Positions 16,846 to 62,481 are shown, counted from the first letter of the stretch. The stretch: DNA of 64,000 bases from a virus (IMGVR_UViG_3300047552_001147:1-64000); one strand, 5' to 3'. Notes: generated from the letters alone by a model not told the origin. A program made the numbers and translations.

Positions 16846-17313
16846 CCAAAGATGACCATAACAACCCAATGGCCTTTCCACTGACCATCAGGTTGCAAGG
16901 GTTACTACTTGGCGTTTACAGGTTCGGAGGGCATAGCAGGAGCTTTTTCCAACCACAGGTTGGGTTGCGCTACCGCGAGTGCTGTAACCTGGTCAACGTA
17001 GGCATCGATACCGGCTTTTAGACCGGTGGCTGCCGCCTTCGCAAACGCCAAACCCTCTAGGTAAGACCGTAAGTCATTATCCTTCAAGAGTCACTCCAAA
17101 AGAGTTAAGCAGTCTCTTTGTTCAGTTTTACATCCCGCTCTCGCAACGGAAGTTGCTTGGAGAGAAAGCTAGGATGGCGACTCTACTTCATTTGACGGAT
17201 CGCGCCGTAGGAGACTATGCGTTGCTTTTTGAGGCAATCACAGTACCCTTCTTATAGCTGTCGCGAGTCACTAGCTGCAGCTACGTGAGCAGAGAAAGGA
17301 GATTACTCTGCTC
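16801..17313 (-). ncRNA. Candidate structured RNA A (about 515 nt)
   Basis: Starts 6 nt after a promoter motif; nested long-range helices with G-U pairs valid only on the - strand; terminal hairpin plus T6. Confidence 0.65.
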
Positions 17314-17360: not shown

Positions 17361-18386
17361 ATGTTTAAACTAGCCGGTGCCGTGGTCGATTGCTATGACG
17401 ACCCCTCCTTTGTGTCATCAATCGCCGCCCAATCACTATTCGGTCATGAGCTTCTTGACCCCTCCCAGTTAGATAAGCTGGCTGACAAAGATTTCGCTGT
17501 CAAGATTGTTGATGGGAACGTAGTGGCAAGAAAGTACCCCATTTACAATGCAGCCATTACTAAGATTTCTTGCGCTTATCTATACGACATGGCTGATAAA
17601 CTTCCTCAGGAAGTCGTCAAAACCGCCGCCGCAAGACTAGCCGCTGCCTGTGAGAAATTTGACATCGGGATTCCTTCAGAATTTGAGCCTATTGCAAGAA
17701 CTGGACAATACACAGTAGTGGTAAAACAAGAAGAAACCCCAGCAGCTATCAGAGAAGAAGACGAGCTAGGAAAGTTCGCTGCCTGGGAAGCTGCCAAACA
17801 GTTCCCCCGAATGACTCCTGAAGATAAAGTGGTGCTAGCAGATGAGCTGCATAAGATCGGCGCCGCTCAGCACAGACCAGAAGTGATGGAATACGTTCCC
17901 ACTGACACATACGGATCACTTCTGAAACAAGCGATTAACGACCGCAAGTACATCCTACGAGGCGATGAATCTGATAATTCAATCATGATCGCTGCCCTAG
18001 ATGATATGTACAGCAGACGTGATCAAAAGTCGCCGCTAGAGTTCGCTGTAGAGCTAGCCAATTTTGATAAGATCGCTGGACTTCGCCCCAGATACAAGAA
18101 CGGACTAACAGATCCGTACAAGGCTAGTTTCGGTGGCAAGAAAGAAAAGTCCAGTGGACCAGTAGAACACGGGCATGCAAAGAACGATGTGTCTAACCAA
18201 GCGCCTGTACCCGTCGATGTGGAAGTCGGATCAAATCTGGCTAAAGAGGGCGCCGAGAAAATGACAGTCGCTGAACATCTTGAAGCGATTGCTAAACACT
18301 ATGGCCATGTTAAGTCCGCTGCCAAAGCTGATGAGACATACGGCAAGTCTTTCATGACCGCATGGAACCTTTACTTCAGGAAGTAG
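17361..18386 (+). CDS. Probable head-associated protein with many KxA sites; DUF6582-like segment
   Basis: LADKDFAV...RKYPI motif; KLA, KTA, KFA, KIA, KSA sites; ADELHKIG. Confidence 0.55.
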   Translation: MFKLAGAVVDCYDDPSFVSSIAAQSLFGHELLDPSQLDKLADKDFAVKIVDGNVVARKYPIYNAAITKISCAYLYDMADKLPQEVVKTAAARLAAACEKFDIGIPSEFEPIARTGQYTVVVKQEETPAAIREEDELGKFAAWEAAKQFPRMTPEDKVVLADELHKIGAAQHRPEVMEYVPTDTYGSLLKQAINDRKYILRGDESDNSIMIAALDDMYSRRDQKSPLEFAVELANFDKIAGLRPRYKNGLTDPYKASFGGKKEKSSGPVEHGHAKNDVSNQAPVPVDVEVGSNLAKEGAEKMTVAEHLEAIAKHYGHVKSAAKADETYGKSFMTAWNLYFRK

Positions 18387-18387
18387 C

Positions 18388-18735
18388 ATGTTCACTGAAT
18401 CACTTTTTGATGAGTTAGAGAAGATCGCCGAGAGCCGAAGTGATCACAACGATCGCCGGATGTTCTCATCTCTAGGCAACGTCATTCTCCCTCCTTTTGG
18501 TTCAATCATGGCGGCCAAAGGTAAGAAGACGCGCAGCCTATTAGGTAGCTTAGGCGGCGGCGTTGTTGGCGCTGGCCTAGGTGGAGCAGCTGGCGCTGGA
18601 CTAGGCGCACTAACTGGCGGCCCTGCTGGGGCAGTTCTTGGCGGCATGTCAGGACTAAGTGTTGGCGGCCCAGTTGGCAGCGGCGTTGGATCATATCTAG
18701 CACACGGTAAGTACAAAGGTAAGAAGGAAGACTGA
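18388..18735 (+). CDS. DELEK-tag protein with glycine zipper
   Basis: MFTESLFDELEKIA; long GxxxG tract. Confidence 0.8.
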   Translation: MFTESLFDELEKIAESRSDHNDRRMFSSLGNVILPPFGSIMAAKGKKTRSLLGSLGGGVVGAGLGGAAGAGLGALTGGPAGAVLGGMSGLSVGGPVGSGVGSYLAHGKYKGKKED

Positions 18736-19004
18736 TGTTCACCGAAGCCCTATTTGATGAGTTACAAAAGCTGGCTGTCCGTATTGTCTATACGAAGCCA
18801 CAGACTAATGTACTCAATCCAATAGAGCACGGCGGCTCACTTCTGAGAGCAAACAAGAACGGCCTCTATCATCCTAAGAGTAATCCAAAGGGTGAGCCGG
18901 GTGTTTCGGCTGGTGCATTGAAGAACTACAAGGATGCTAGGGCGGCGAATAATCCACGCATGGAGGGTGAAATCGCCCGCATGCGTTATGGGATCAAACT
19001 CTAA
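18735..19004 (+). CDS. DELEK-tag basic protein
   Basis: MFTEALFDELQKLA. Confidence 0.8.
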   Translation: MFTEALFDELQKLAVRIVYTKPQTNVLNPIEHGGSLLRANKNGLYHPKSNPKGEPGVSAGALKNYKDARAANNPRMEGEIARMRYGIKL

Positions 19005-19006
19005 CT

Positions 19007-19039
19007 AAAAGAACAGTCCATTGCTGGATTGTTCTTTTT
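19007..19039. terminator. Bidirectional terminator
   Basis: AAAAGAACAGTCCA-ttgc-TGGATTGTTCTTTT. Confidence 0.8.
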
Positions 19040-19041
19040 GA

Positions 19042-19461
19042 TTACTGTGTATTCCGGTGGCTGCGCGTCAGCACGTCCACAAGCATACACAGGAACATTT
19101 CCCCATGTTTACGCGTCTCAGGCGTATCGAAGATGATAGCTGAGAGCGCCATTTGCTTGGCCACACCCAGCGTTTTGGCATCCCATGAGGCAATCGTATC
19201 GTAGTGCCTCTGAAGGATATCCTTCGGCTCCTTGGCTGTGAAAAACAAGGATGCGAAGCTCTCACGAGACTGAGGCTTATCACTGCCTTCCAGTACGTGA
19301 TTGATATCCAGCACAACCCTGTCCGTGTTATCGAACAGTTCACTAAGCTGCTGCTCCTTCACCTCATCGCTCAATTCATTATTGAATACGATGTGATTGA
19401 CAGCATACGTTGCTTCGGTCAGCAGGATTGCCTGGATGACACTGCTGTCTCTGATTGTCAT
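19042..19461 (-). CDS. Helical hypothetical protein, paralog of 19647-20066
   Basis: Colinear similarity by eye; AAGGA RBS. Confidence 0.7.
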   Translation of the reverse strand: MTIRDSSVIQAILLTEATYAVNHIVFNNELSDEVKEQQLSELFDNTDRVVLDINHVLEGSDKPQSRESFASLFFTAKEPKDILQRHYDTIASWDAKTLGVAKQMALSAIIFDTPETRKHGEMFLCMLVDVLTRSHRNTQ

Positions 19462-19494
19462 GTGGGATCCTTTTAGTGGACTAGCTCGAAGCCG

Positions 19495-19629
19495 TCAGTG
19501 GATACTGATCCCGAACATCTTGAATGTGAGTATGGCTGTCACGAGTATAGTGAAAAACAGCGTGGCCATGAAGACGATAAGTCCAATCGCTTCGATGATG
19601 CGACGCTGGTACGATTTCAGAAGATCCAT
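19495..19629 (-). CDS. 44-aa membrane peptide (below the ORF-track cutoff)
   Basis: MDLLKSYQRRIIEAIGLIVFMATLFFTILVTAILTFKMFGISIH; AAGGA RBS. Confidence 0.6.
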   Translation of the reverse strand: MDLLKSYQRRIIEAIGLIVFMATLFFTILVTAILTFKMFGISIH

Positions 19630-19646
19630 AGCGGTTCCTTTGCTCC

Positions 19647-20066
19647 TTAGTTGAGGGCGGCGGCCTGTTCGGTGATCTTGCCGATCTCCGCATGGATGGT
19701 GGCGGCCAACAGCATGTTGGCGGTTGAGTCGTCATTCACCTCGGCGATGATGGCGAGACGCTTCATCAGTCGGAGACGGTTCGGGTCGAATTTGTTGATC
19801 AATTCGAACATCTGTCTCGCGACATCAGCGGGACCGAGATCCGTGTCGGGGAAGGTTTGGCGGAATGACTTGATCGACTCCTCGGATGTACATTGATCCG
19901 CTATGAACGAATCAAGATCGAGGACGATGTCGTCCGGGTTCTGTGCCAGCCGCTTGAGTTCCACGACAACCTCGTCGTCGGTGTGCGTCTTGGTGTAGTT
20001 GAGGAGGTGGGTCGTGACGATGGCGCCGAGGAATACGTGGACCAGGTGGGTGTTTGTGGGCTTCAT
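19647..20066 (-). CDS. Helical hypothetical protein
   Basis: AAGGAG RBS; first gene after a promoter motif. Confidence 0.75.
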   Translation of the reverse strand: MKPTNTHLVHVFLGAIVTTHLLNYTKTHTDDEVVVELKRLAQNPDDIVLDLDSFIADQCTSEESIKSFRQTFPDTDLGPADVARQMFELINKFDPNRLRLMKRLAIIAEVNDDSTANMLLAATIHAEIGKITEQAAALN

Positions 20067-20099
20067 GTTTTGCTCCTTGGTTAGTTGGACCTGTCATAG

Positions 20100-20108
20100 T
20101 CTTATGAC
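20100..20108 (-). promoter_or_regulatory. Conserved promoter motif GTCATAAGA
   Basis: AAAAA lies 14 nt upstream. Confidence 0.75.
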
Positions 20109-20174
20109 GCGCCCGCTGTTGCTTTTTGAAGAAATCACGCTACTCTTTTAGTAGTCCTTCACTGAGAATAGTAC

Positions 20175-20675
20175 ATGTTCACAGAATCGTTTTTTGATGA
20201 GTTGGAGAAGATCGCGCTAACACTAAGAGGCGCGGTAGCTAGTGGCACAGCAAGATCAGCTGCCGGACACTCTCTGTTTAGACCAACTGGCCAATCCTCA
20301 GGATACGCTACACGTGCGAACCTGGCGAATGTTGGTAGACAGGACGTAGCCAAACGTAACATCCCTCCGATTGAGGAGCGGGCTAAGGTGCCTAGCCATC
20401 AGCTATCTCGCAACCAGATTGGGCAAGCTTTCCACGCTAAGAAGAGCTTTGAGAGCCCTAACACATTCAAAGGTTTCACTCCTGCTACTACCTCAGGTGC
20501 TAAGCCGTTAAATTCTGGAGCAAAGGCTGACTTGAAATCACGGCTTGTCGGCTCATACAGAGATAGACATGGAATTGGTCCGCACGTATCGGACCAAAAC
20601 GTTACAGGCAGGATGCTGAATAACAACGAGCTCGCTCGCCGCCGCACTGCCAGAGCAATGTTCAAAGGAAAGTAG
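20175..20675 (+). CDS. DELEK-tag basic protein
   Basis: MFTESFFDELEKIA; R/K-rich. Confidence 0.8.
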   Translation: MFTESFFDELEKIALTLRGAVASGTARSAAGHSLFRPTGQSSGYATRANLANVGRQDVAKRNIPPIEERAKVPSHQLSRNQIGQAFHAKKSFESPNTFKGFTPATTSGAKPLNSGAKADLKSRLVGSYRDRHGIGPHVSDQNVTGRMLNNNELARRRTARAMFKGK

Positions 20676-20678
20676 CAC

Positions 20679-21071
20679 ATGTTCACTCAAGCCCTTTTTG
20701 ATGAGCTAGACAAGCTCGCTGCTGTCGGTGTCCCTAAGCTTCTAAAGACTACAGCGTCACCATTCGGCAAGCGCTCTCGCGGCACTATCTCAAATCTTGT
20801 CCGCAAAGGTAAGAAGGGGTTCAAGCTACCGCTGCTGAAGACAGCCGAAGAGACTGTTGAATCACTTTTCGGCGGCAAGGGCGATGGTAAAGATGACGAC
20901 GACTTCGACCGAAAAGAGCTATCTAAGGGTAAGAAGGTCGAGCGTGAGCATACCAAGAGCAAGAAGAAGGCTGGGGAAATCGCCCGCGATCACCTGACTG
21001 AAGATAAGAAGTACTACTCAAAGCTCCACAAAGCTGGGCTAGCAGATGAGCTAAAAGCAAAGCCTATATGA
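20679..21071 (+). CDS. DELEK-tag protein with DUF5661-like domain
   Basis: MFTQALFDELDKLA; ELSKGKKVEREHT...IARDHLTEDKKYYSKL. Confidence 0.75.
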   Translation: MFTQALFDELDKLAAVGVPKLLKTTASPFGKRSRGTISNLVRKGKKGFKLPLLKTAEETVESLFGGKGDGKDDDDFDRKELSKGKKVEREHTKSKKKAGEIARDHLTEDKKYYSKLHKAGLADELKAKPI

Positions 21072-21084
21072 CTTTGCTGTAACG

Positions 21085-21636
21085 TTAGACTGGCGGAAGC
21101 TCAACAGCCAGTTCAGGGTAGCGGATGCGGATCTGCTCCAGCAACCACTTCTCTTGCTCCATCTTTGCTTGTCGGAATAGAATGGATTTCGCGTCAAGCG
21201 GTTGAGAACGGGTGGCGCTGTGTGAAGCGCACAGATCAGACGATCTCCTCACGTAAAGTAGGAATTCGTCACAATACGCATTTTTGTAATGATATGCAGC
21301 ACGCGTATGTTCGTTATCAGGACCGAATTCGTCGGTAAAGTCCAGTAGTAGCCGCCCTATGTCGGCTGTTCCAAGAACCTGTCGTTCGGTACAAACGAAC
21401 TTGTCGTCATCGCGACTGATGCTGCCTGCGCAGCGTACACGCCGCAGAATTACTCCTGGGGCGTGCATAATAGCATCAATTAGGCGCTCACTTGCGTGAA
21501 GCCCTGAGCGACACAACAGTATCGCTCCGTGGTGTGTTTCGGTCTCAAAAGCTTCTTTCGCTTGACGAGGTTCGGACCAGTTGTAACTGGCCATCTTGCC
21601 ACGTTCAGCGATGAAGTGCCAACCTAGTACGGCCAT
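21085..21636 (-). CDS. WH...GLHAS...DKxVC domain protein (DUF7666-like), paralog 3
   Basis: GWHF, LCRSGLHAS, DDKFVCTER. Confidence 0.65.
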   Translation of the reverse strand: MAVLGWHFIAERGKMASYNWSEPRQAKEAFETETHHGAILLCRSGLHASERLIDAIMHAPGVILRRVRCAGSISRDDDKFVCTERQVLGTADIGRLLLDFTDEFGPDNEHTRAAYHYKNAYCDEFLLYVRRSSDLCASHSATRSQPLDAKSILFRQAKMEQEKWLLEQIRIRYPELAVELPPV

Positions 21637-22229
21637 TCGATCCCTTCTCCTTTCCGAACAAAGAGGTGTTGGTAGGTTTTGCTGAGTAGCCATTCGTTGG
21701 CGTAGCGACTCATTTGATCACGAACTGCTCTGTTGCCACCCGCATAAGCGTCCAGGCAATTTACGGCGTAACGTGCTATGAGCAAGAGAGACTTGTTGTA
21801 CCATAGCTCACTTCCCAGCGGTTCTTTTTGAAATTCTGGTCTATTGTTGAACCACTGCTTCAACTCAATAACCCGATTTTTCGGGCTATTCCAGAAGAAC
21901 GACGGTGTTCTTTCCTCGTATCTCACCTTATCAGTGACATACGAGGCGAACTCCTCCAAGATCTTGGTGAAGTCCAGCGTGTGTACGATCTCTCGACGAG
22001 AGCACACAAGCTTGTCGCGTTCGGTAATGGCGTTGAACACCTTGACCAGCCGCAGAGTTGTGCCGGGGGCGTAAGCGACGGCATCAATCAGACGAACACT
22101 TGCGTGTAGACCTTTCTCACATATGATGAGTTCACCATCGTATGTTTCAGCTTCACCGTCTGCGGCGGCTTTTGATCCATCCCTCAGTAAGCCGGTGCTG
22201 GTGATGAAGTGCCAGGCGTAATCAGACAT
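21624..22229 (-). CDS. WH...GLHAS...DKxVC domain protein, paralog 2
   Basis: AWHF, ICEKGLHAS, RDKLVCSRR. Confidence 0.65.
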   Translation of the reverse strand: MSDYAWHFITSTGLLRDGSKAAADGEAETYDGELIICEKGLHASVRLIDAVAYAPGTTLRLVKVFNAITERDKLVCSRREIVHTLDFTKILEEFASYVTDKVRYEERTPSFFWNSPKNRVIELKQWFNNRPEFQKEPLGSELWYNKSLLLIARYAVNCLDAYAGGNRAVRDQMSRYANEWLLSKTYQHLFVRKGEGIEWPY

Positions 22230-22836
22230 ACACACCTTCCTTCTTGGCCTTGGCGATGACCGCCTTTTTGATGTAGTTGATGTGCCACCGGATGGTGGAG
22301 GTCGTGCAGACGTCATTGCCAGCACATGCCTGTATGGCCTCGACTGTTTCCGTCCAGTCGGGATACCACATCTCGTTGTTGGTACGGTCTGCTTTATTGT
22401 AAGCAGCCATAACCTGACGTTTGGTAGCCTTGCCCTTACGCCAGCGTTTTGCGACTCGGTACAGGTCGCCGAAAGGCTTGCTCAGCTTGCAGCCATCCTT
22501 TCTCTGCAATTTGATGAGACGATCCACTTCCATGAACAGGACATTGTTGAGGATGTCCTCGATGTTGATGGTGTAGAGGATCTTCCGCTCGGTGCAGACG
22601 AGCTTGTCATCACTTTCGACGACGTATCCGCTGCACTGTACGCGGCGAAGATACGGTCCTTTGTGGTACCTCGAGGCGTCCTCCAGTTTCCTGGACGCAT
22701 GTAGCCCGTAGTTGCACAAAGACACGTGAAGCCCGAGGTGCTTCTCGACGCCGGGGGCCTGCTTGGCTGGCCCGCCATTGTGGCTGAGCTTACGGCGGTT
22801 GCCGATCAAGTGCCAGGCAAGAATTGATTTGGTCAT
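22222..22836 (-). CDS. WH...GLHAS...DKxVC domain protein, paralog 1
   Basis: AWHL, LCNYGLHAS, DDKLVCTER; AAAGGAGG RBS. Confidence 0.65.
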   Translation of the reverse strand: MTKSILAWHLIGNRRKLSHNGGPAKQAPGVEKHLGLHVSLCNYGLHASRKLEDASRYHKGPYLRRVQCSGYVVESDDKLVCTERKILYTINIEDILNNVLFMEVDRLIKLQRKDGCKLSKPFGDLYRVAKRWRKGKATKRQVMAAYNKADRTNNEMWYPDWTETVEAIQACAGNDVCTTSTIRWHINYIKKAVIAKAKKEGVYV

Positions 22837-22866
22837 TGGTCCTCCTTTGTGACCTTGGTTCAATCA

Positions 22867-22875
22867 TCTTATGCC
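22867..22875 (-). promoter_or_regulatory. Conserved promoter motif GGCATAAGA
   Basis: AAAA lies 14 nt upstream. Confidence 0.75.
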
Positions 22876-22939
22876 ACACTCGGGGCGCATTTTCATCACT
22901 TTGCGTTAGAATTAGAAGGTGAGTACACTCGGAGAACAC

Positions 22940-23176
22940 ATGAGCTTTCAGAACGCCTTTTTTGATGAATTGACGAAGATCGCCGGCGATGACAAGTACA
23001 TCAAGCGGAAGCCTATGCAAGGCCCATCAGGGTTCACGCCCGGCTCAGTACTGGAACAAGAGCGTTCATTCAGAAGAATGAGCCGCCCAGTATCCTCAGG
23101 AAGAGCTGTTGGCAGTCTGAGCCAGCCGACTAGCGCTAGTGCGCGTAGGCCAGCTCCTAAATTGGTGCCTAGATAA
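22940..23176 (+). CDS. DELEK-tag basic protein
   Basis: MSFQNAFFDELTKIA; GGAG RBS. Confidence 0.8.
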   Translation: MSFQNAFFDELTKIAGDDKYIKRKPMQGPSGFTPGSVLEQERSFRRMSRPVSSGRAVGSLSQPTSASARRPAPKLVPR

Positions 23177-23184
23177 CACAGCCG

Positions 23185-24207
23185 ATGTCGTTCCAATCTA
23201 CGTTTTTTGATGAGTTGGAGAAGCAAGCTGTAATAGGTACCGCTATTACGGGGGCAGCGGCCCATCTAGGGATGAACGCCGCTGTTAAAGCCATTGGAAC
23301 TAAAAGAACAGGGCTGGCTGGTAAGCTGCTGAACCCGGCGCATAATTGGGTGCACAAGAAGAAAACTGAGGGGATGGCTGAAGGCATCCGCCGAGGATTG
23401 AAAGGTGAGAGCCCGCTGACCACTAAGGGGAAGATCACGCGATCTTGGGGCGTTCCTGAGCTAACGGCGGGGGCCGAACCTGGCCACAAGATTGGTGATG
23501 AGTTAGCCACTATACGGCCATCCCACAGATACCGCAGACTTCGTAAAATGCGCCAGGCGATGCTCAAGAGTGATCATGCCAAGCATGCGCCTATTGGTGA
23601 GAACGCCGTTGGCGCCATCACAAAGACTTTAGCGGATAAGGACGCTATGCGCTCACCCCGCAGGAGTCGGCCCGGACACACTAAGAAAGATGTCGCCGGT
23701 CATATTGGTGCTGTCGCAGCAGGACTACCCACCATACCGCTTACAGCAGGTAAGTCAGCTATCCACGGTGCGCTGAATGTCGCGAGAGTTGGTACAGCGA
23801 AATCAAAGGTTGGGCGCGACTTCGCGGCTAAGGGATTCAAGGAAGGCTTGAAGGGTAAACTACCGAGCAAAGGTAAGCAGCGCTTCTATGACTACGCTGT
23901 CTCGCCTTCAGCTCTAGATAGCCACCGGCTTGGCCACGCTGTTAGTAAAGAGACGCCGGCTAACCAGCTAAGATTGGCTCACTCATACGGTCGTGTTACA
24001 CCACACAGCACTAAAGTGCAATCTAGATCAATCGCCTCTAAGGTTCACTCGTTAGCGCACAAGACGCCGATTGAGCAAGCACGTCTAAAGAGCAAGGCTG
24101 AGAAAGCGCTCTCTGAAGTTCCGTCAAAAGTGAAGAACAAGTTCAAGGAATACGGCGGCAAGATGCTTGAGAAGAAGCTAAGCCACTTCCAGAACAAGAA
24201 AGACTAA
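23185..24207 (+). CDS. DELEK-tag very basic protein
   Basis: MSFQSTFFDELEKQA; K/R/H/A/G-rich. Confidence 0.8.
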   Translation: MSFQSTFFDELEKQAVIGTAITGAAAHLGMNAAVKAIGTKRTGLAGKLLNPAHNWVHKKKTEGMAEGIRRGLKGESPLTTKGKITRSWGVPELTAGAEPGHKIGDELATIRPSHRYRRLRKMRQAMLKSDHAKHAPIGENAVGAITKTLADKDAMRSPRRSRPGHTKKDVAGHIGAVAAGLPTIPLTAGKSAIHGALNVARVGTAKSKVGRDFAAKGFKEGLKGKLPSKGKQRFYDYAVSPSALDSHRLGHAVSKETPANQLRLAHSYGRVTPHSTKVQSRSIASKVHSLAHKTPIEQARLKSKAEKALSEVPSKVKNKFKEYGGKMLEKKLSHFQNKKD

Positions 24208-24230
24208 AATACTGGTTGAACCAGTATTCT
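24206..24230. terminator. Probable terminator between convergent genes
   Basis: AATACTGG-ttgaa-CCAGTATT. Confidence 0.65.
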
Positions 24231-24233
24231 ACG

Positions 24234-24356
24234 TCATTGCACCATATCGTACAAATGAGTCAGAACAAAATACACGATGAACCACATGGCGGCGATTGCT
24301 ACAACAGGTGCCACAATCTCCCGCCAAATGTGCTTCAGCTTTTCTAGAGTGTTCAT
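24234..24356 (-). CDS. 40-aa membrane peptide (below the ORF-track cutoff)
   Basis: MNTLEKLKHIWREIVAPVVAIAAMWFIVYFVLTHLYDMVQ; AAGGAG RBS; own promoter motif and terminator. Confidence 0.7.
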   Translation of the reverse strand: MNTLEKLKHIWREIVAPVVAIAAMWFIVYFVLTHLYDMVQ

Positions 24357-24373
24357 GTTATCTCCTTCTAGTA

Positions 24374-24382
24374 TCTTATGAC
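24374..24382 (-). promoter_or_regulatory. Conserved promoter motif GTCATAAGA
   Basis: 18 nt upstream of the peptide ATG. Confidence 0.7.
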
Positions 24383-24410
24383 TGATTATACCCTGAAAAT
24401 GGAAGCACAC

Positions 24411-24671
24411 GTGACATTCGAGAGAGCACTGATCTCAGAGCTAACTAAGCTCGCTATGGCAGCGAGCAATGCGGCGGATTACTGGGCCAATAAGGACGCC
24501 GCCGGCTTATCCAACAAACAACTACAGCCGGCTCACCGCAATCTGGATTATCTAGGTAAGCGGCCTAAGCCCAGGCAGTTAGACTTACCGTTCCCCAAGA
24601 AGCGGCCTATCCCACCAGCTGGGCCGGCGAAACAAGAGTTCGATTACATCAAGCGGAGACAGGGCCGCTAA
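24411..24671 (+). CDS. DELEK-tag variant basic protein
   Basis: (GTG)TFERALISELTKLA. Confidence 0.7.
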   Translation: MTFERALISELTKLAMAASNAADYWANKDAAGLSNKQLQPAHRNLDYLGKRPKPRQLDLPFPKKRPIPPAGPAKQEFDYIKRRQGR

Positions 24672-25237
24672 TGCCTTTCAAATCAAAAGCACAGCAGCGG
24701 TTTATGTTCGCGGCGGAATCCCAGGGTAAGCTAAAACCTGGGACCGCGCGGAAGTGGGCACACGAGACCAAAGATATGAAGAAACTACCTGAGCACGTTA
24801 AGAAGGCAGCGTTCGCGGACGCTGTTTTTGATGAGCTTGAGAAGTTGGCTGACCTACGGTTCGGCGATCCGAAGCATCCGGTAACAAGCTTGGGTATCTT
24901 CCTCCACGCTGACGAGGGGAAAGAGCGAAAGGTGCACAAGGAGTGGATGGACCTATTCTCGAAACATAGGTCACCAATCAAAGCACTCTCGGCGTACACA
25001 AAGCGTCACCCGAATACGTTTACTACCGCACTAATCAAGCACGAGGCGCCTCCGGGACTACTGTCCTTCAAGCAGAAGGCGCTGTACGCGGATAAGGTCA
25101 AAAATCCGCGCCTGTTCGTGAGAATTGGTCCAGCCGGATCACACTCGCAACACGCTATGTACCAAGAGGCCATGCGCGGTCTCTACGACGATGAGTTGCA
25201 CCACGCACCTAAGGATCAGCGACATGTTTACGGCTAA
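24671..25237 (+). CDS. MPFKSKAQ-type small phage domain fused to an internal DELEK tag
   Basis: MPFKSKAQQRFMFA...KKLPEHVKKAAFADAVFDELEKLA. Confidence 0.75.
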   Translation: MPFKSKAQQRFMFAAESQGKLKPGTARKWAHETKDMKKLPEHVKKAAFADAVFDELEKLADLRFGDPKHPVTSLGIFLHADEGKERKVHKEWMDLFSKHRSPIKALSAYTKRHPNTFTTALIKHEAPPGLLSFKQKALYADKVKNPRLFVRIGPAGSHSQHAMYQEAMRGLYDDELHHAPKDQRHVYG

Positions 25238-25499
25238 CTTCCAACAGGCATTCTTTGACGAGCTTGAGAAGCTCGCGTTCGTAGATCCGGCCACAATCAC
25301 CGCCGCGTCTACAGGCACACTCGCGGTACTAGGTCTTGGTAGTAAGTCTATCAAGACTGGTAAGTCGCTGTACAAGAAGTACAAGAGCTGGCGTAAGAAA
25401 GAGAAGAAGATGAAGCGCGGCAAGCTCAAGGAGTTCAGTAAGGCAATGCTGAGAGCGCCGGTTACCGTAGCTAATGAGGCGTCGGAGCATTTCGGATGA
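25224..25499 (+). CDS. DELEK-tag basic protein
   Basis: MFTANFQQAFFDELEKLA. Confidence 0.75.
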   Translation: MFTANFQQAFFDELEKLAFVDPATITAASTGTLAVLGLGSKSIKTGKSLYKKYKSWRKKEKKMKRGKLKEFSKAMLRAPVTVANEASEHFG

Positions 25500-25762
25500 G
25501 ATTCCAACAAGCACTATTTGACGAACTTGAGAAACTGGCCATTATGGCTGGTGGTAGCACACCTTCCGGACCATCTCCACGCACACCGTCACCTAGAGAG
25601 GTTAAGCTGATTAATAGCAACGCGGTTAACTTGCTGAAAGAGAAATTATCAACAGGTGACCACGGCACAGTTCATGGAATGTTCCCGAAATCTAAAGCAC
25701 GGCAGGACGGTATGCGTTGGCACCCACAAAACAGACTTAAAGGTCTGTTAGGTGATAAATGA
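25496..25762 (+). CDS. DELEK-tag protein
   Basis: MRFQQALFDELEKLA. Confidence 0.8.
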   Translation: MRFQQALFDELEKLAIMAGGSTPSGPSPRTPSPREVKLINSNAVNLLKEKLSTGDHGTVHGMFPKSKARQDGMRWHPQNRLKGLLGDK

Positions 25763-26022
25763 CTTTCCGCCAGGCCTTTTTTGATGAATTAGATAAGCAA
25801 GCTGCCTCGTGGACGGAACACGTGGGTGTGGCTGCTGAGGCAGCTGATGCTATTCGGCACTCTGGCGCTATCGGTGCAGCGAAACAGTACATCAAATCGT
25901 CTGGTGGCGTAATACCGGCGGCGAGGATTGCAGGCTCAATAGCATTGCAGGGAGCAGGTAAGGCTGCTAGAAGAGTTGGTCTGCTACCGCCCCAGCGTAG
26001 ACCTAAGATGGTGAAAGTCTGA
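25759..26022 (+). CDS. DELEK-tag protein
   Basis: MTFRQAFFDELDKQA. Confidence 0.8.
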   Translation: MTFRQAFFDELDKQAASWTEHVGVAAEAADAIRHSGAIGAAKQYIKSSGGVIPAARIAGSIALQGAGKAARRVGLLPPQRRPKMVKV

Positions 26023-26026
26023 GTAA

Positions 26027-26635
26027 ATGATCGAGCAAATCTTCAAATCTAAACACATCCTGCCCCAAGCCTATAAGCTTGTGCTGGATCAGACCATGCC
26101 TGAGGGGTGGGCGACTTGGGAGCCGGAAGCCCTGTGGGATGAGATCCAGCGTGTCCACGGAGTGCGACCTATCGAGGAAGTAGCGAACAAGATCAACGCG
26201 ATCAAGACGCTGCTGACTACCGAGCTCTATTACATGGACGCGACCGTATTTGAGAACATGATACTGGCCGCGAACGATTTGATGGTTCAGCCATCATCTT
26301 TCCAGATGTGCTCACCAGAGGAACTGGTGTACGGTATTAGGGCCTTCCGCCCCATTGAAAACCGCCCCCAGTCTTGGGGTAAAGAGATCCGGGCGTATGT
26401 TGACGCCTGCTGCCAGTTCTACGGGCTTTTGAAATATCCAGCTGAGCTAGAATTTGCACAGCCGCAATATGATGGTGAGCTGGCGAACCTGGCCAAACAG
26501 ATCACAATTAGGTATACTGATCCGAAAACACTGGATCAGAAGGACGTGGTGGCTGTTCAAGGTAACAAGCTCTACCATATCGCTGAGTATTGCGCAGTTA
26601 AGCTAGGTATGATGAGTGAGGAGAGCTTGAAATGA
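26027..26635 (+). CDS. Hypothetical protein (untagged, globular)
   Basis: 202-aa ORF inside the tag array. Confidence 0.7.
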   Translation: MIEQIFKSKHILPQAYKLVLDQTMPEGWATWEPEALWDEIQRVHGVRPIEEVANKINAIKTLLTTELYYMDATVFENMILAANDLMVQPSSFQMCSPEELVYGIRAFRPIENRPQSWGKEIRAYVDACCQFYGLLKYPAELEFAQPQYDGELANLAKQITIRYTDPKTLDQKDVVAVQGNKLYHIAEYCAVKLGMMSEESLK

Positions 26636-27030
26636 CGTTTTCTGATAGCTTGCTAGACGAGCTAAACAAACTGGCATATGACTACGGCTACGAGGCCCGC
26701 CGGTCAGAAGACCGTCATCGTTACAACCAACACACCAAGCCGCCCAAGTGGAAACACGCCCTATTGACGGGCGTAGTTATTGGTGCGGGACTGGGTGGTA
26801 TCCTAGCTAGCAAAGGTAAGCGGATGAGGGGTGCTGGTATCGGTGCAGCCGGTGGTGCTGTTGCTGGTGCTGTGTACAAAGGTCTACGCCACGTGTCTAT
26901 TGCTGATAGCAAGCATGTGATGTCTATGCCGAAGAACCGCCGCCGCGATCTACTAAAGCATCGCTCAAGAGCACACGAACGCGCATACGACGACATCAAC
27001 CAGGAACTCCTAAACAGGATGGGTCGTTAA
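26632..27030 (+). CDS. DELEK-tag protein with glycine zipper
   Basis: MTFSDSLLDELNKLA; GxxxG helices. Confidence 0.8.
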   Translation: MTFSDSLLDELNKLAYDYGYEARRSEDRHRYNQHTKPPKWKHALLTGVVIGAGLGGILASKGKRMRGAGIGAAGGAVAGAVYKGLRHVSIADSKHVMSMPKNRRRDLLKHRSRAHERAYDDINQELLNRMGR

Positions 27031-27031
27031 C

Positions 27032-27307
27032 ATGTTTCTAGAATCTTTCTTCGACGAGCTTGAGAAGCTCGGAGCCAAGTTTAACCCTAAACCGACGGTC
27101 GCCCACAAAGCACCTATTGGGCCAGCGGAGCCAACGGCAAATGCATACAAAAGAGGCTTCCAAGAGGCAGGGCGTCGTGTGCATAGCAACATGCAAAAAG
27201 GTCGCGGCACTCCCAAACAACCGTGGTATAAGAGCCCCGCTGCAATGATCGGTGGCGGTCTAGCTGGCGGATACGCGCTGTCTAGACTGACAAATAGGGA
27301 CGAGTGA
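27032..27307 (+). CDS. DELEK-tag protein
   Basis: MFLESFFDELEKLG; C-terminal Gly-rich helix. Confidence 0.8.
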   Translation: MFLESFFDELEKLGAKFNPKPTVAHKAPIGPAEPTANAYKRGFQEAGRRVHSNMQKGRGTPKQPWYKSPAAMIGGGLAGGYALSRLTNRDE

Positions 27308-27588
27308 TGTTCGCGGCAGCATTCTTCGACGAGCTAGAAAAGCTAGCCACCAACATCCTCACTAACAGTGTTGATGTGGTTAAGAAGCGCTGGAAAGAGG
27401 ATGTGGAAAAGCCGCGTCCTCCTGTTGTCAAGACAGCGATGCTTAATCCTGTCACATCTGCGTTGATGAAGAACAGCACTCCTGCCCAAGCATATCGCGG
27501 TATCCGTTCCGGCGTTAAAGCACTCGGTGGTGGAACATCCCGCATCGGCGGCGTCAGCGCACCTAAGCCCGCTACATTCAAGCTATGA
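27307..27588 (+). CDS. DELEK-tag protein
   Basis: MFAAAFFDELEKLA; internal VKTA. Confidence 0.8.
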   Translation: MFAAAFFDELEKLATNILTNSVDVVKKRWKEDVEKPRPPVVKTAMLNPVTSALMKNSTPAQAYRGIRSGVKALGGGTSRIGGVSAPKPATFKL

Positions 27589-29714
27589 GCAAACAAGTTA
27601 ATCGCCGCCGTGGTTCATCTGATCAGCACGCCGAATTTGTCGGCTCGGCTGGCGAATTAACTGTTGATACCACAAAGAACACTGTGGTTGTGCACGATGG
27701 CCAGACTCCTGGCGGCCATCCACTAGCTAAAGAATCAGAAGCTATTGTTCCTGCGCAGCAATTCATCCTACACGCTGGTGACTTATCTGAGTACATGAAG
27801 CGTGTGCCGATGATTGGTGCACGTCAGCCGAGAGAACTCGTAACAGCTACAGGTCTGTGGTATGGTGGACATACGACACACGGCGACTGGTCTGGTACGC
27901 TGCAAGAACGCAAAGACGGGACATTTGGCAGTGGCGGACCAGCAGAGCTAGACTACGCGCCTAGCGGGCAGTACACGCTGTTTAACTGTGGTAGAATGCC
28001 AGCAGATGGCTCGCCTCGCGGCTTCTTCACAGAAGGCGGACTGCCTTCACCTGACGTTGGCGCCACATACGGCGTCGCTGTTCGTAGAGCATTCGCTAGA
28101 CGCGCTAACTTCACTGGCGCAACCTGGTCACCCGCTAGCTTAACGCTCACGCTCGTGTCTTCACCAGCATACACGTTCACAGGAAATGACTGGATCGCGC
28201 TGCACTGCCTAACCAACCTAACTGATCAGCAGGTAATCGACAACGATGTCTGCACCGGTTGGTATCGCCCTGCGTCCTACAACAGTGCAACGAAGAAGGT
28301 AGTGCTGACAGCGGATGAAGAACTGAACGGCCCTACCTTCTGCCCTAACACACTAGCGGCAAAAGTTGACGGCACGTTGTTCCAGGCTAATGACTGCACG
28401 TACTACACTGGCGTAGCTTACAGCCCCGCTGGCTCACTGCGTAAGGCTGGCGCGAACTTCCCGTCTCCCGGTCCTGACGATACCGTTGAGATGGCCTTCG
28501 ATGATGGCACGTACAACTACGCCAAAATCCTAGGTAGAGTGTCGCCGGCCGAGCTGACAGTAAGTGATGAGATTGACGGCACCTTCACCGGCAATATGAG
28601 GCTGTTCACGCGCGGCTCATTCGAGAAGGTCGGTGTAATCAGTTGGACTGGCGCCAATGCCACCAACCACTGGGCCGATGCTGGTAGTCCTAGATACCAG
28701 GTGATGCACATCACGACATCGCCGCTCTCGTCCAGCCCTAAGTGGGGAGATCAGTACTTCGTCTACTACACTGGTGGCGTATCACCGCACCCCGACTCGC
28801 ACCCCGAGGATATCCCCACTAGAACAGCTGATTACACGCTCGCTAGCTGGTGGCCGTACTTCTCAGCGGTCAAATCGTCGCACACTAGTGGTAAGTCTGT
28901 CAGCGGCAACGGTAACAACCCCGCTGCTGAAGTCGGAAGTGATATGAGCCACTACTGGTGGGGTACTTTCTGCGTACCGCGCAGCACCTTCCTCAACGGA
29001 TCAATCATCGACGTAACTACAGTGATGGATGTGACGTACTTCGGTACGCCGTTCTTCATTGAAGTCCTTGTGATCCCGAACTTCGATCCCGAGGCGGATT
29101 GGATCAAGGACCACACCAGCGTCGGCAACAAGCTGCGCCTTAGCAACGATATGATCTACATGTTCCAGTCCTCGATTTTACGTGGAGTGGAGCAGCAGCA
29201 GACTATCGCGCCGATGTGGATCCGCCTAACAGGACAGGCCGGATACATCCAGACTATCGGCGTGCAGCAAGGGCTTAACCCAGGACCAGGTGATAACTCC
29301 TCACAACAGTGGCGCTGTGAGTTCCTTCTTGGTCCTCCGGGAAGTGATGGTGCTGAAGAATCACACTTCGACCGCTTCCCGAGTACTAAAGGTCCGCTGT
29401 CTCATATTCAGGAACTAGATGAAACAGCGGCGACAGACTTCACCAATGATGATGTAATGTACACCGTCCTCATCAAGTCTGAGCACGCATCTCTTTATGG
29501 ATACCCCGGCTACCACGGCCATTACAGCGGCGAACCGTACTCATGCACAACCGGAAACGGTGGCGTGTTGTTGCATCACCCAGGTAACCTGACTACTGCT
29601 GTTTACTCAGCAGGATCTCCGGCACCATTTAGTAGAGCGCTTCTATCACTGCCGTGGGGAGCCCGATTCCGTGTAGGAACCTTTAGAGCCGAGTGGCGTC
29701 CAGGCGGAGAATAA
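27585..29714 (+). CDS. Tail fibre/receptor-binding protein with Mtd_N-like N-terminal domain
   Basis: RRGSS...GELTVDTTKNTVVVHDGQTPGGHPLA. Confidence 0.75.
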   Translation: MSKQVNRRRGSSDQHAEFVGSAGELTVDTTKNTVVVHDGQTPGGHPLAKESEAIVPAQQFILHAGDLSEYMKRVPMIGARQPRELVTATGLWYGGHTTHGDWSGTLQERKDGTFGSGGPAELDYAPSGQYTLFNCGRMPADGSPRGFFTEGGLPSPDVGATYGVAVRRAFARRANFTGATWSPASLTLTLVSSPAYTFTGNDWIALHCLTNLTDQQVIDNDVCTGWYRPASYNSATKKVVLTADEELNGPTFCPNTLAAKVDGTLFQANDCTYYTGVAYSPAGSLRKAGANFPSPGPDDTVEMAFDDGTYNYAKILGRVSPAELTVSDEIDGTFTGNMRLFTRGSFEKVGVISWTGANATNHWADAGSPRYQVMHITTSPLSSSPKWGDQYFVYYTGGVSPHPDSHPEDIPTRTADYTLASWWPYFSAVKSSHTSGKSVSGNGNNPAAEVGSDMSHYWWGTFCVPRSTFLNGSIIDVTTVMDVTYFGTPFFIEVLVIPNFDPEADWIKDHTSVGNKLRLSNDMIYMFQSSILRGVEQQQTIAPMWIRLTGQAGYIQTIGVQQGLNPGPGDNSSQQWRCEFLLGPPGSDGAEESHFDRFPSTKGPLSHIQELDETAATDFTNDDVMYTVLIKSEHASLYGYPGYHGHYSGEPYSCTTGNGGVLLHHPGNLTTAVYSAGSPAPFSRALLSLPWGARFRVGTFRAEWRPGGE

Positions 29715-29715
29715 C

Positions 29716-30903
29716 ATGGCAGGCATTGTAGCTGAGTTCACCAGAGAGACATGTGATTTCCCTGGAACACGGGTGCAGCGGCTTTACTGGCCGCACAGTT
29801 CAGGACTGTGCCACATGGCAGCGTGGCTGCCCAGCACCGATTTCCAGAATGGTAAGGTAGCTGTGTTCGTTCATGGTGGTAACCTCGGCAACAACCCAGG
29901 TTGGGGCGCGATGCTCGGGCAGCTATCTGAAGCAAAGAACTTCGCTTTGGCCCAGAAGCTCAACCAAGAGGGTTGGGTCATTGTCACCATCGACTACCCA
30001 GTGTGCGGGATGTTCAAACACCAGATCGAGGGTGGAACAAACGGACTAGCACGTATCCTTGGATCGTGGGCCGAGATTCACCCGCTAGCAATGTGGCCAG
30101 AACAGGCAGCGTACGTTGCACTGGCTGTTCAGTATCTGAAGACCAACGCTTCAGCTGTTGAGGGAGAGATTGTTGGTCCGTTCGCTGAAGAACTGTGGGG
30201 CGCTGGTAACTCCATCGATCCTGAGCACATCTGGTTGATCGCGAATGACTGGGGAGCGACTCTCTCGTTGTTCGCTGCATTACAACCGTCGGGTGTGTAC
30301 AAGTACGACCAGATTGGTGCCTTTGCCATGGACTACTACATGCCCAGAGCGAGTCATCGCGTTAAGGGAGTTGTAGCGCGTAATCCGGGTCCGCTGGACT
30401 TCACACAGTTCCATGTACGCAAGAGCGGGTATATTGCGCCGACCCCGTCCTACTTACAGAACGACCGCTTCCATCCGATCACTAGATCAGAGTCTAACAC
30501 GAGATGGTCGACGACGCCGATGGCTGTCAAGCGCATCAGCCCGTGGTGGGCACTGAAAGCTAATCACGCTGAGAACAGCAATCTCAAGATCTTCACGGAG
30601 TTTGAGAACAACGGCTCTAGCGCCAGTGCTGGAACATATGACGCTCACCTTACAGCCGATCAGTGGACGCCTGGAGTTGTGTGCGATGGTAGTGGAACAC
30701 TACTAGGTGATGGCTACCAGTGGATCATGCCGGATGACGGTAGAATCCAGGCCGCCCCGTGGCGCACTGCGCTGCTAGAGTGGCCATATACTGGCACACC
30801 GATCACATCAAGCATCGTACGAGACAACACCACCAACTCTTCTGATCCGCTGATAACGGATCAAGAAGCTTGGGTCGAGGACGTGTACAACTTCATAGTG
30901 TGA
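29716..30903 (+). CDS. Alpha/beta-hydrolase fold protein
   Basis: VAVFVHGG, GWVIVTIDY, IDPEHIWLIANDWGA, RVKGVVA. Confidence 0.7.
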   Translation: MAGIVAEFTRETCDFPGTRVQRLYWPHSSGLCHMAAWLPSTDFQNGKVAVFVHGGNLGNNPGWGAMLGQLSEAKNFALAQKLNQEGWVIVTIDYPVCGMFKHQIEGGTNGLARILGSWAEIHPLAMWPEQAAYVALAVQYLKTNASAVEGEIVGPFAEELWGAGNSIDPEHIWLIANDWGATLSLFAALQPSGVYKYDQIGAFAMDYYMPRASHRVKGVVARNPGPLDFTQFHVRKSGYIAPTPSYLQNDRFHPITRSESNTRWSTTPMAVKRISPWWALKANHAENSNLKIFTEFENNGSSASAGTYDAHLTADQWTPGVVCDGSGTLLGDGYQWIMPDDGRIQAAPWRTALLEWPYTGTPITSSIVRDNTTNSSDPLITDQEAWVEDVYNFIV

Positions 30904-32282
30904 TGTGGCTCTTACTGCTACTACAAACAATGCTAACACCCTGGGCACCTAACTACGAGTTCCACATACCGGCCAACTCAACGACGACTGGCCTGTCGTG
31001 GACACGCGTGACGCCGACGCTGTACGATGATGTCGGTGGGTGGGCATTCACGTTTAAGACGGGTCAGCGTATTCGCGCCCGCCTATTTGACGACGTACTT
31101 GTTGGCACAGAGCCTAATGCGAAGCCGACAGCGTACACTGGTGATCTGACGATTGACACAACAGACGTTGGTAAGGATCACTACGAGCCGGACATCTGCT
31201 GGAACCCAACCACCAGAAACATCGCGCTCGCGTGGAACAACCGCCTGGCGCTTCCTGGTGATGCAATGGACGTTCGCTTCAGAGTCATCAATGAGGCGGG
31301 CGTTGCACAAATGTCGCAAGACGCTCTCGCCACTAGAAAGAAGCTAACGTCCCAGTGGCGTCCTATCCTAGAACCGTACGAAGACTCGTGGATCATGAGC
31401 TTCACTGGCAATGATAAGGACTCGGCGTTCTTCACAATGATCGACGCCTCAGCACCGTTTGCACTGACGTCTGATTACCCAGCGCAAGCAGTCGATATCA
31501 AGATGGCGCCGGTGATTGGTTCTCACCGACAAATCGATCAGCACGCTATCGCGCTACCTGATGGACGCATCCTGTGTGCGTGGAATCACTTTGAAGGTAA
31601 AGGCCGCGTCCGCTATCGGTTGTTCAACGCCGACTGCACGCCTACCGGTAACTATGTCGAGCTTCCTGCGCAGCTGACATACGGTAAAGATGAGCCGAGA
31701 CTCGCCTACAGCAACGGCTTCATCTGGTTGGTGTATCACCACGAGGTTAAGGGTGGAGAGTATTACGGTCTAGACGTTTACGCTACTGTGCTTAGCTACA
31801 ACAGCACGAGCGGCGCGATTTCTGTAGTAAAAGATGAATTTGCTATTCACCCAATCGACCGTCCTGGGTTACAATTAAAACCAGAGATCACCATCGTAGG
31901 CAATAAGGTGATCATCGTATTTGAAGACTATCCAAGCGCTTACGTACCAACAGGATATGGCGCAACACCTTATCCCGTAATGGTTGTGTCAGGCGGGTAC
32001 TCGCAGATTTGCTACAGAATATTCTCGATTGGTGGTGGCGCAAGAACACGCGTACTCCGCCTAGACAATCAGAGCGTATCCAATCCTAGCGGCAGTGTTC
32101 CGTATGCCTTGCGTCCGGACATTGCAGCCAGCGAAGACGGTGCACAGGCTGTAGTGTGTTGGACGCAGACAAATCTAATTCAGACAGCAATCGGTTCTAG
32201 ACCGAATGACATTTACAGCATACAATCAGGCACGCCGACGCGGCTGTATGCTAGAGTACTCGACCTGACAGCCTTACCTTAA
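30903..32282 (+). CDS. Beta-rich (propeller-like) protein with hydrophobic N-terminus
   Basis: Repeated P-x-I...W/F units (YEPDICW, WRPIL, EPRLA, KPEIT, RPDIA); coupled ATG 30903. Confidence 0.55.
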   Translation: MWLLLLLQTMLTPWAPNYEFHIPANSTTTGLSWTRVTPTLYDDVGGWAFTFKTGQRIRARLFDDVLVGTEPNAKPTAYTGDLTIDTTDVGKDHYEPDICWNPTTRNIALAWNNRLALPGDAMDVRFRVINEAGVAQMSQDALATRKKLTSQWRPILEPYEDSWIMSFTGNDKDSAFFTMIDASAPFALTSDYPAQAVDIKMAPVIGSHRQIDQHAIALPDGRILCAWNHFEGKGRVRYRLFNADCTPTGNYVELPAQLTYGKDEPRLAYSNGFIWLVYHHEVKGGEYYGLDVYATVLSYNSTSGAISVVKDEFAIHPIDRPGLQLKPEITIVGNKVIIVFEDYPSAYVPTGYGATPYPVMVVSGGYSQICYRIFSIGGGARTRVLRLDNQSVSNPSGSVPYALRPDIAASEDGAQAVVCWTQTNLIQTAIGSRPNDIYSIQSGTPTRLYARVLDLTALP

Positions 32283-32292
32283 GGAACACAAA

Positions 32293-32538
32293 ATGGCAAA
32301 TGCAGTTCTGACAAGACACAGCAGCGGAGATCCCGCACTCGTCATCACACTCCCCGCCGGAGTTAACTTCGCAGAGCATACGCAGCACGCTGTAGAAGCT
32401 CTCCGCATTCTGAACAATACACCGACTGCCCCGGCATCTTCGTTCTCGACACTAGAGATTGCAGAACAGATGCAGGAAGCTGTTCGCGAAGTAACGTGGC
32501 GCGCAGTTAACGATCATATCGACCTCAATGTTTTTTGA
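32293..32538 (+). CDS. Hypothetical protein
   Basis: AAGGA RBS. Confidence 0.7.
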   Translation: MANAVLTRHSSGDPALVITLPAGVNFAEHTQHAVEALRILNNTPTAPASSFSTLEIAEQMQEAVREVTWRAVNDHIDLNVF

Positions 32539-32707
32539 TGGTTTTATCAAAGAGCTAGTGAAGCTAGCGAAGAACGACAAGGCTCAGCGCATGCAAGCTG
32601 CGTTGAGCCGAGTTGATCGTATGTACAGTAATCGCTCAGCAGCCGACAAAGTAAAAATGAAGAAGCAACGTATCGCCAACATGTCTGGCTTCTTCCGCTT
32701 GCGCTAA
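32528..32707 (+). CDS. 59-aa DELEK-tag variant basic protein (below the ORF-track cutoff)
   Basis: MFFDGFIKELVKLAKNDKAQRM...FFRLR. Confidence 0.7.
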   Translation: MFFDGFIKELVKLAKNDKAQRMQAALSRVDRMYSNRSAADKVKMKKQRIANMSGFFRLR

Positions 32708-55730: not shown

Positions 55731-55731
55731 G

Positions 55732-62375: not shown

Positions 62376-62481
62376 ATATTTGATCAGTTTATTAGTTGTG
62401 CAGTCGCTTTTTGACGGTATCCTGAATTAGATCAGGATCTTTTTTTGTGATCCGCTCATTACGGATCAAAAAGCGCTTTCT

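Follow-up and report, generated by a model that had tools for sequence, protein, structure and literature searches.

The viral contig IMGVR_UViG_3300047552_001147 carries, within its first 64,000 nucleotides (nt; the stretch that we analysed, hereafter called the window), an array of 15 open reading frames (ORFs) whose products share a short leader and are otherwise unrelated. We consider it reasonably probable that this leader, or tag, is a capsid-targeting propeptide that works like the capsid-targeting sequence (CTS) of phage T4, loading proteins into the prohead under a Lys-x-Ala (K-x-A) rule. The initial annotation had described the array as a modular address label that loads diverse cargo into the prohead, is cut at K-x-A and delivers its payload with the DNA. 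Part of this description is borne out by the sequence: the tag is modular, it ends in a motif common to predicted head proteins, the phage is predicted to encode a protease with the fold of T4 gp21, and tagged genes share operons with tail-fibre-like and portal genes. Docking, cleavage, presence in the virion and ejection, which would turn such a label into a system of packaging, cutting and delivery, are steps that we infer.

The nine-residue core of the tag was written as the regular expression [FLIVM][FLIVMST][DEKS]EL.K.[AG] and run on all six frames of the window. It gave 15 matches, every one on the + strand between 18403 and 32543, and none in 30 shuffles of the window. The same leader had been reported to open 14 ORFs and to occur internally in a further one at 24671, always on the strand of the structural genes, and the matches reproduce this arrangement; in 14 of the 15 copies a start codon lies 4-9 residues upstream of the core. 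Extending the scan by pattern to the full 94.5-kb contig and to related phages yielded copies across the relatives and a 16th copy in the contig itself, at position 70880 within the head/tail module, whose leader is closest to that of the ORF of 59 amino acids (aa) at 32528. The leader takes the form M-x(1-4)-F-x3-[FL]-F-D-E-L-x-K-x-A and is 14-18 aa long. Aligned tags give the consensus F-F-D-E-L-E-K-I-A, with D, E, L and K invariant; the off-consensus copies are those of ORFs 24411 and 32528, which have I-S-E-L and I-K-E-L, respectively, instead of F-D-E-L.

The net charge of the tag is -3, and its helical hydrophobic moment, 0.55, is in the top 1% of its own shuffles. When the 12 codons around the core were compared among the tags, two, five and two different codons were found for the invariant E, L and K, respectively, pairs of identical residues agreed in their codon only 49% of the time, and no two tags had a nucleotide run of more than 23 nt in common. 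Because synonymous codons vary so freely, the constraint acts on the peptide and not on a DNA site, as had been proposed from the sequence. What is under selection is an acidic, amphipathic peptide.

The cargos that follow K-x-A are 45-325 residues long. In an all-against-all BLASTP comparison of the 16 sequences no pair was significantly similar (best E 0.013), and all 16 have an isoelectric point (pI) of 9.7-11.7, with up to 64 Lys and Arg residues each. A pI of 9.7 or more is found in only 14 of the 119 other predicted ORFs of the contig (12%). A search of the cargos against Pfam returned only DUF5661 (ORF 20679) and a glycine zipper below the cut-off (ORF 26632). The description of the bodies as mutually unrelated and strongly basic therefore holds, and so does that of the tag as modular, since in relatives it precedes cargos with distinct Pfam domains. 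One feature by which the CTS class is recognized, a short leader common to unrelated proteins, is present here in 16 copies of 14-18 aa.

In our effort to establish what reads the end of the tag, we considered where else in the contig the same motif occurs. The pattern L.K.[AG], derived from the tags alone and then counted over the contig proteome, occurs 63 times against 23 expected. The 390-aa protein encoded at 62482 has 7 occurrences (0.69 expected) and the 341-aa protein at 17361 has 5 (0.38 expected), and there is also an excess in the protease, in the 562-aa protein at 48934 and in the small acidic proteins whose genes separate that of the protease from that of the capsid protein. In the capsid protein, L-x-K-x-[AG] stands right before the conserved body in the phage of the window, in the closest relative (G010), in a second relative (G033) and in gp226 of Salmonella phage Arash. 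Such a distribution of K-x-A in the head module is what would be expected of maturation sites in a gp21-type system, and the end of the tag is probably what the head protease of this phage recognizes, a motif that the predicted scaffold-like and capsid proteins would carry as well.

Four small proteins are encoded between the protease and the capsid protein (contig 65938-67406; L002:5938-7406). They have a high density of E-K-x-A-S sites, at least one of them is strongly acidic, and the protein at 66823 has a tag-like start, M-L-F-S-D-I-E-E-L-I-K-R-A.

The protease itself was modelled over its N-domain from an alignment of 11 homologues, in which H124 and S175 are invariant. The best structural match of the model in a full-library alignment with VIA-align 2 was T4 gp21 (5jbl_A; Z 7.7, root-mean-square deviation 3.6 A over 137 residues), followed by two herpesvirus proteases, those of varicella zoster virus and human cytomegalovirus; unrelated folds scored below Z 3.3. 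The protein also matches phrog_18299 weakly. On the strength of this model, the phage encodes a prohead protease of the gp21/assemblin fold. Two K-x-A motifs of the protease, K28/A30 and K244/A246, lie on either side of the catalytic domain in variable segments predicted with low confidence, yet are invariant in 11 of 11 homologues. For the proteins encoded at 62482 and 17361, the ESM Atlas returned nothing usable. The protease genes of two relatives (L059 of G033 and L068 of G013) are interrupted by a large in-frame insertion whose first residue, a Cys, follows immediately on conserved protease sequence, and which looks like an intein with a homing-endonuclease part.

T4 gp21 cuts by the rule L/I-x-E and the herpesvirus proteases by V/L-x-A. 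As both rules have a hydrophobic P3 residue, we favour a cut after Lys in L-x-K, which would mirror the T4 rule; a herpesvirus-like cut between Ala and Ser would also fit the S, G or A that follows Ala at the sites of the head module.

These observations bear on two other ways of reading the leader. It might be a pro-piece that the head protease or some other protease removes and that masks or neutralizes toxic DNA-binding basic peptides without targeting anything to the prohead, which would suit a tag of net charge -3 ahead of strongly basic cargos and a K-x-A motif common to head proteins. However, three net negative charges cannot balance up to 64 Lys and Arg residues, the F-x3-F-F-D-E-L that precedes the cut motif is kept across distant phages beyond the needs of a cleavage site, and the T4 precedent joins targeting and cleavage in one peptide; we judge such a function unlikely. 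It is quite unlikely, in our estimate, that the leader is instead a permanent docking helix that stays uncleaved and anchors proteins to the inner capsid, the portal or scaffold-like proteins of the mature virion. An N-terminal amphipathic helix would serve that purpose and cleavage is a predicted step, but the invariant K and A match a motif that recurs about 10 times in scaffold-like proteins and is conserved on both flanks of the protease domain, as is typical of processing sites.

To follow the proposed targeting propeptide beyond this contig, IMG/VR was searched with a strict degenerate DNA pattern for [LF]-F-D-E-L-E-K-x-A. It was found in 41 stretches against an estimated 3 or so by chance. 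Of the 84 unique tag occurrences at these loci and in the closest relative, 76 lie no more than 20 residues downstream of a start codon, mostly at 6-10. The looser D-E-L-x-K-x-[AG] occurs in 3-16 copies per contig of 130-210 kb, nearly all on one strand, and reversed-pattern controls gave a total of 6 over 36 records. The protease family is present in 22 of 36 contigs, including 13 of the 14 fully searchable ones above 100 kb; the sole contig above 100 kb that lacks it has one tag and is 48% complete, and the other protease-less contigs are fragments, two partly searched records and small genomes with a single match. A fused β-β′ RNA polymerase is encoded by all 14 of the large tag-bearing contigs tested (L194-L207). 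Single matches in small complete viral genomes and in a tape-measure protein (G007, G023 and L007) were treated as chance.

The closest relative has a capsid protein 63% identical to that of the contig and 16 tag copies, and in its examined tag regions only one of the 16 cargos, that of ORF 20679, has a homologue; ORF 23185 has homologues in other relatives. As so few cargos have homologues in tag-bearing relatives, the tag is stable while the cargo turns over. A complete genome of 178 kb (G028) encodes nine dispersed tagged proteins, all with a cargo pI of 9.7-11.8. Among 50 tagged proteins from relatives, a Pfam scan identified InPase, DUF6321, DUF5661, a J domain (DnaJ), a Zn-peptidase, a 3D domain and DUF6582, and in one of them the InPase (pyrophosphatase) domain (PF18823, E 1e-45) begins two residues past the tag. 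InPase of this type is known from phage 'polyvalent proteins' and is predicted to be packaged in the virion (PMC5512222).

Descent of the tagged genes from one ancestor, with an N-terminus that has been conserved while the rest diverged and no common address function, would agree with their tandem layout and with the 23-nt run. We regard it as highly improbable, given cargos that range from 45 to 325 aa with no detectable similarity, that differ across the clade in their Pfam domains (DUF5661, InPase, DUF6321, DnaJ and Zn-peptidase), and that turn over while the tag persists where the protease is only 34-63% identical.

The strict pattern was also searched in GTDB genomes, where it has at least 120 matches, almost all single, most deep in long ORFs and few near an ORF start. 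That the motif is a common cellular helix is true of the bare word; the phage pattern differs in being N-terminal, multi-copy and strand-consistent. As the word is common in cellular genomes, the evidence lies in this N-terminal, multi-copy use by phages and not in the word. Three further searches were negative: tblastn of a 20-aa tag against cultured phages gave no match, the query being too short for the E-value limit; a homologue search with residues 1-40 of ORF 20175 found only itself, since a tag of 14 aa is below the reach of the word index; and a full-text literature search for the motif strings found no relevant paper.

The genomic context of the array points to the structural genes. 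Tagged ORFs 7-15 form one tightly coupled + strand block with the tail-fibre-like gene at 27585, two large genes and the portal gene, and there is translational coupling of tagged genes to those for the tail-fibre-like protein and the portal. The head module begins at 62482. The sequence GCTTTTTGA occurs exactly, within TTGCTTTTTGA-N5-ATC, upstream of three genes (17361, 20175 and, in the head module, 62482) at distances of 54-137 nt. These copies are at 17224-17232, 20121-20129 and 62406-62414, all on the + strand, and the contig has five in all. It may be a late promoter common to the first two tag units and the head module, although we regard it as a weak lead.

This context also bears on a role outside the virion, with the leader acting as an export or processing leader of the bacteriocin/ComC double-glycine type, as a peptide that binds a host factor, or as a sorting signal for an intracellular phage compartment. 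The E-L-x-x-[IL] of an N-terminal amphipathic leader is loosely like that of double-glycine leaders, and some cargos have glycine-zipper, membrane-like segments. Against this, none of the 16 tags of the contig and 30 further aligned tags has G-G past the motif, which sets them apart from double-glycine leaders; a scan of ORFs in the neighbourhood of tagged genes against Pfam or PHROGs revealed neither a C39 peptidase nor an ABC exporter, the remainder of the contig having been covered less than exhaustively; the genes sit in structural operons; and the tag co-occurs with the head protease family. All this makes a role outside the virion very unlikely.

A capsid-targeting propeptide would operate as follows. 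The tagged genes would be expressed late, alongside the structural genes, and the acidic amphipathic helix would dock small basic cargo on the inside of the assembling prohead, with scaffold or core proteins or the protease itself as its partner. The prohead protease of the gp21 fold would then cut at or next to the invariant K-x-A, the tag would depart, and the mature basic proteins would remain with the packaged DNA. There they may neutralize charge, and a part of them may pass into the host on ejection. On the model of T4 IPI (PMC3012670), we speculate that ejected proteins could play a part in counter-defence.

The T4 CTS is the leader of the internal proteins IPI, IPII and IPIII and of Alt, and is removed by the prohead protease gp21 (PMC3012670, PMC5694885), which also fragments scaffold and core proteins and trims N-terminal propeptides from capsid proteins, Alt and internal proteins (PMC5694885). 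The two systems are alike in several respects: a short (10-20 aa) N-terminal amphipathic leader stands on otherwise unrelated basic proteins, it appears to end in the motif of its own head protease, which has the gp21 fold, the same motif is found in scaffold-like proteins and at the N-terminus of the capsid protein, and the cargo set varies between relatives. They differ in that the tags have no sequence similarity, the motif being L-x-K-x-A here and L/I-x-E in T4 with no end of the I-A-E type here, and in that 16 tagged genes lie in 94 kb here against four in T4. The clade described here has a fused β-β′ RNA polymerase and a distant Arash-type portal and capsid. Because the tag is not related in sequence to the T4 CTS and the phage is not T4-like, we place the system as one that would work like the T4 CTS and not as a member of its family. 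Mullaney and Black are said to have dealt with T4's internal-protein CTS in 1996.

Encapsulin cargo-loading peptides are likewise short and portable and load diverse cargo into a shell of the HK97 fold, but they are C-terminal, uncleaved and unrelated in sequence. The inner-head and ejection proteins of phiKZ and SPN3US have long propeptides that gp175 and gp245 cut at S/A/G-x-E (PMC5694885, PMC7411985). Those phages too are large and have a virion RNA polymerase as well as a protease related to gp21, and many of their inner-head proteins are processed, with propeptides that are thought to target the prohead. Their propeptides, however, exceed 100 aa, belong to paralogue families and are cut after Glu, whereas the leaders here are 14-18 aa long with Lys, so that we do not group the two. 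Polyvalent proteins (Iyer et al. 2017, PMC5512222) share the theme of delivery with the DNA, and the tagged cargo of one relative has an InPase domain of a kind predicted to be virion-packaged; they are large multidomain fusions, in contrast to the single small cargos here, each with its own tag.

Several observations weigh against a CTS-like function. In ORF 24671 the tag is internal. The protease model has a predicted local distance difference test (pLDDT) score of only 62.7, which is moderate, although its core is well predicted, and a Foldseek search of the model against the PDB gave nothing significant, with gp21 only at E of about 0.4. At the sites of the head module K-x-A is followed by S, G or A, and in the tags the next residue is free, so that the two sets of sites are not identical. 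Arash is described as an 'orphan' myovirus of 181 kb, and RNA polymerase was the most abundant protein in mass spectrometry of its virions (PMC10585845). In 14 relatives the N-terminus of the fused RNA polymerase has neither the tag nor a conserved K-x-A, and because this virion polymerase, the only protein of the clade for which packaging is known (in Arash), is untagged, the tag is not the general way into the head and there are other ways in. The closest cultured relatives, Arash and Vibrio phage D181, have clustered E-L-x-K-x-A sites in their head modules and lack the tag array, and none of the 16 tagged cargos has a homologue in Arash. As both phages are without the tag, their virion proteomics cannot be transferred. 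No cultured tag-bearing phage was found.

The portal of the phage (32718-34682) is 27% identical to those of Arash and Vibrio phages D181, D148 and D69, and homologues in Arash were found for only about eleven of the contig's proteins. Table 1 collects the tagged genes and the other features to which we refer.

Table 1. Positions of the tagged ORFs and of associated genes in the contig.
Feature	Position	Strand	Remarks
Untagged 341-aa protein heading first tag operon, rich in L-x-K-x-[AG]	17361-18386	+	Homologues adjoin tagged genes in G010 and L008
Tagged ORF 1, 115 aa, glycine-rich basic cargo	18388-18735	+	pI 10.1
Tagged ORF 2, 89 aa	18735-19004	+	pI 10.2
Tagged ORF 3, 166 aa	20175-20675	+	pI 11.7
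Tagged ORF 4, 130 aa, DUF5661 cargo	20679-21071	+	Pfam PF18905, E 1.6e-7; tagged homologues in G010 and other contigs
Tagged ORF 5, 78 aa	22940-23176	+	pI 11.7; ATG within longer listed ORF
Tagged ORF 6, 340 aa, largest cargo	23185-24207	+	Body homologous to region downstream of InPase domain in tagged L018:8519-9646
Tagged ORF 7, 86 aa, off-consensus tag	24411-24671	+	GTG start; alternative ATG at 24378
ORF 8, 188 aa, internal tag at residues 46-60	24671-25237	+	Tag at nt 24806-24850; same layout in relative L008
Tagged ORF 9, 91 aa	25224-25499	+	ATG within longer listed ORF
Tagged ORF 10, 88 aa	25496-25762	+	
Tagged ORF 11, 87 aa	25759-26022	+	
Tagged ORF 12, 132 aa, weak glycine-zipper segment	26632-27030	+	Gly-zipper E 0.009, below cut-off
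Tagged ORF 13, 91 aa	27032-27307	+	Tag ends in K-L-G
Tagged ORF 14, 93 aa	27307-27588	+	Stop overlaps start of 709-aa tail-fibre-like gene
Tail-fibre-like gene, 709 aa	27585-29714	+	phrog_9648
Tagged ORF 15, 59 aa, variant tag	32528-32707	+	11 nt upstream of portal gene
Portal protein	32718-34682	+	Same operon as tagged ORFs 7-15; 27% identity to Arash gp204 portal
Fused β-β′ RNA polymerase, 2029 aa	40996-47085		
562-aa K-x-A-rich protein	48934-50622	+	Between PAAR/spike genes and terminase; K.A[SAG] 6 vs 0.6 expected
Large terminase	51686-53506		
Scaffold-/core-like 390-aa protein	62482-63654	+	First head-module gene; about 10 [LI]-x-K-x-A-[SGAE] sites
Protease-like protein, 457 aa	64568-65941		Just outside window
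Capsid protein	68004-69251		Just outside window; phrog_2522

ORF 24671 begins with a basic N-terminal extension of 45 residues (nt 24671-24805) ahead of its internal tag, which has no Pfam match and, if the tag is cut, would be released together with it. The array is broken by three leftward cassettes, each headed by G[GT]CATAAGA[CT], a motif that the tagged units do not use. One cassette is a pair of 139-aa ORFs on the - strand (19042-19461 and 19647-20066), distant paralogues with 28% identity (E 3e-6) and no Pfam family, headed by GTCATAAGAC at 20099-20108. Three tandem DUF7666 paralogues lie on the - strand inside the array (21085-21693, 21624-22325 and 22222-22863; E 5e-6 to 4e-5, all close to the Pfam cut-off, with two below and one above it), and this block is headed by GGCATAAGAT at 22866-22875. 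In the operon of tagged genes and portal, a 395-aa protein (29716-30903) has weak matches to alpha/beta-hydrolases (E 0.01-0.02, below the cut-off). A gene for nicotinamide phosphoribosyltransferase is located on the - strand at 54285-55838 (NAPRTase, E 2.5e-39); Arash also encodes one, which is reported in its virions.

To our knowledge, the T4 CTS is the only well-studied short portable head-loading tag of tailed phages, and it is treated as a feature of the T4 group. Head loading of this type is therefore already known, and what would be new here is the sequence of the tag, the clade and the Lys-x-Ala rule. More broadly, F-F-D-E-L-E-K-I-A could be a portable capsid-loading address in a large group of 130-210 kb phages, almost all of them uncultured, that encode a fused RNA polymerase; its reader would be a protease of the gp21 fold whose rule has changed from Glu to Lys-x-Ala. 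For this proposal we see the balance as level. If the function is as proposed, this would be a second system, with an unrelated sequence and another protease rule, in a different and widespread uncultured clade, and tag-directed head loading would be a recurrent solution and not a peculiarity of T4. If the cut falls after Lys, it would be invisible to standard tryptic proteomics. The tag could become a second, orthogonal CTS with which foreign proteins might be brought into the heads of phages. Its sequence would also provide a rule by which candidate packaged or injected proteins could be listed in metagenomic phages, and the fast-turnover basic cargos would be candidates for DNA condensation or counter-defence. 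In these phages the internal, and possibly injected, proteome would become readable from sequence, and would include basic DNA-associated proteins together with enzymes, among them a pyrophosphatase, a Zn-peptidase and a protein with a J domain.

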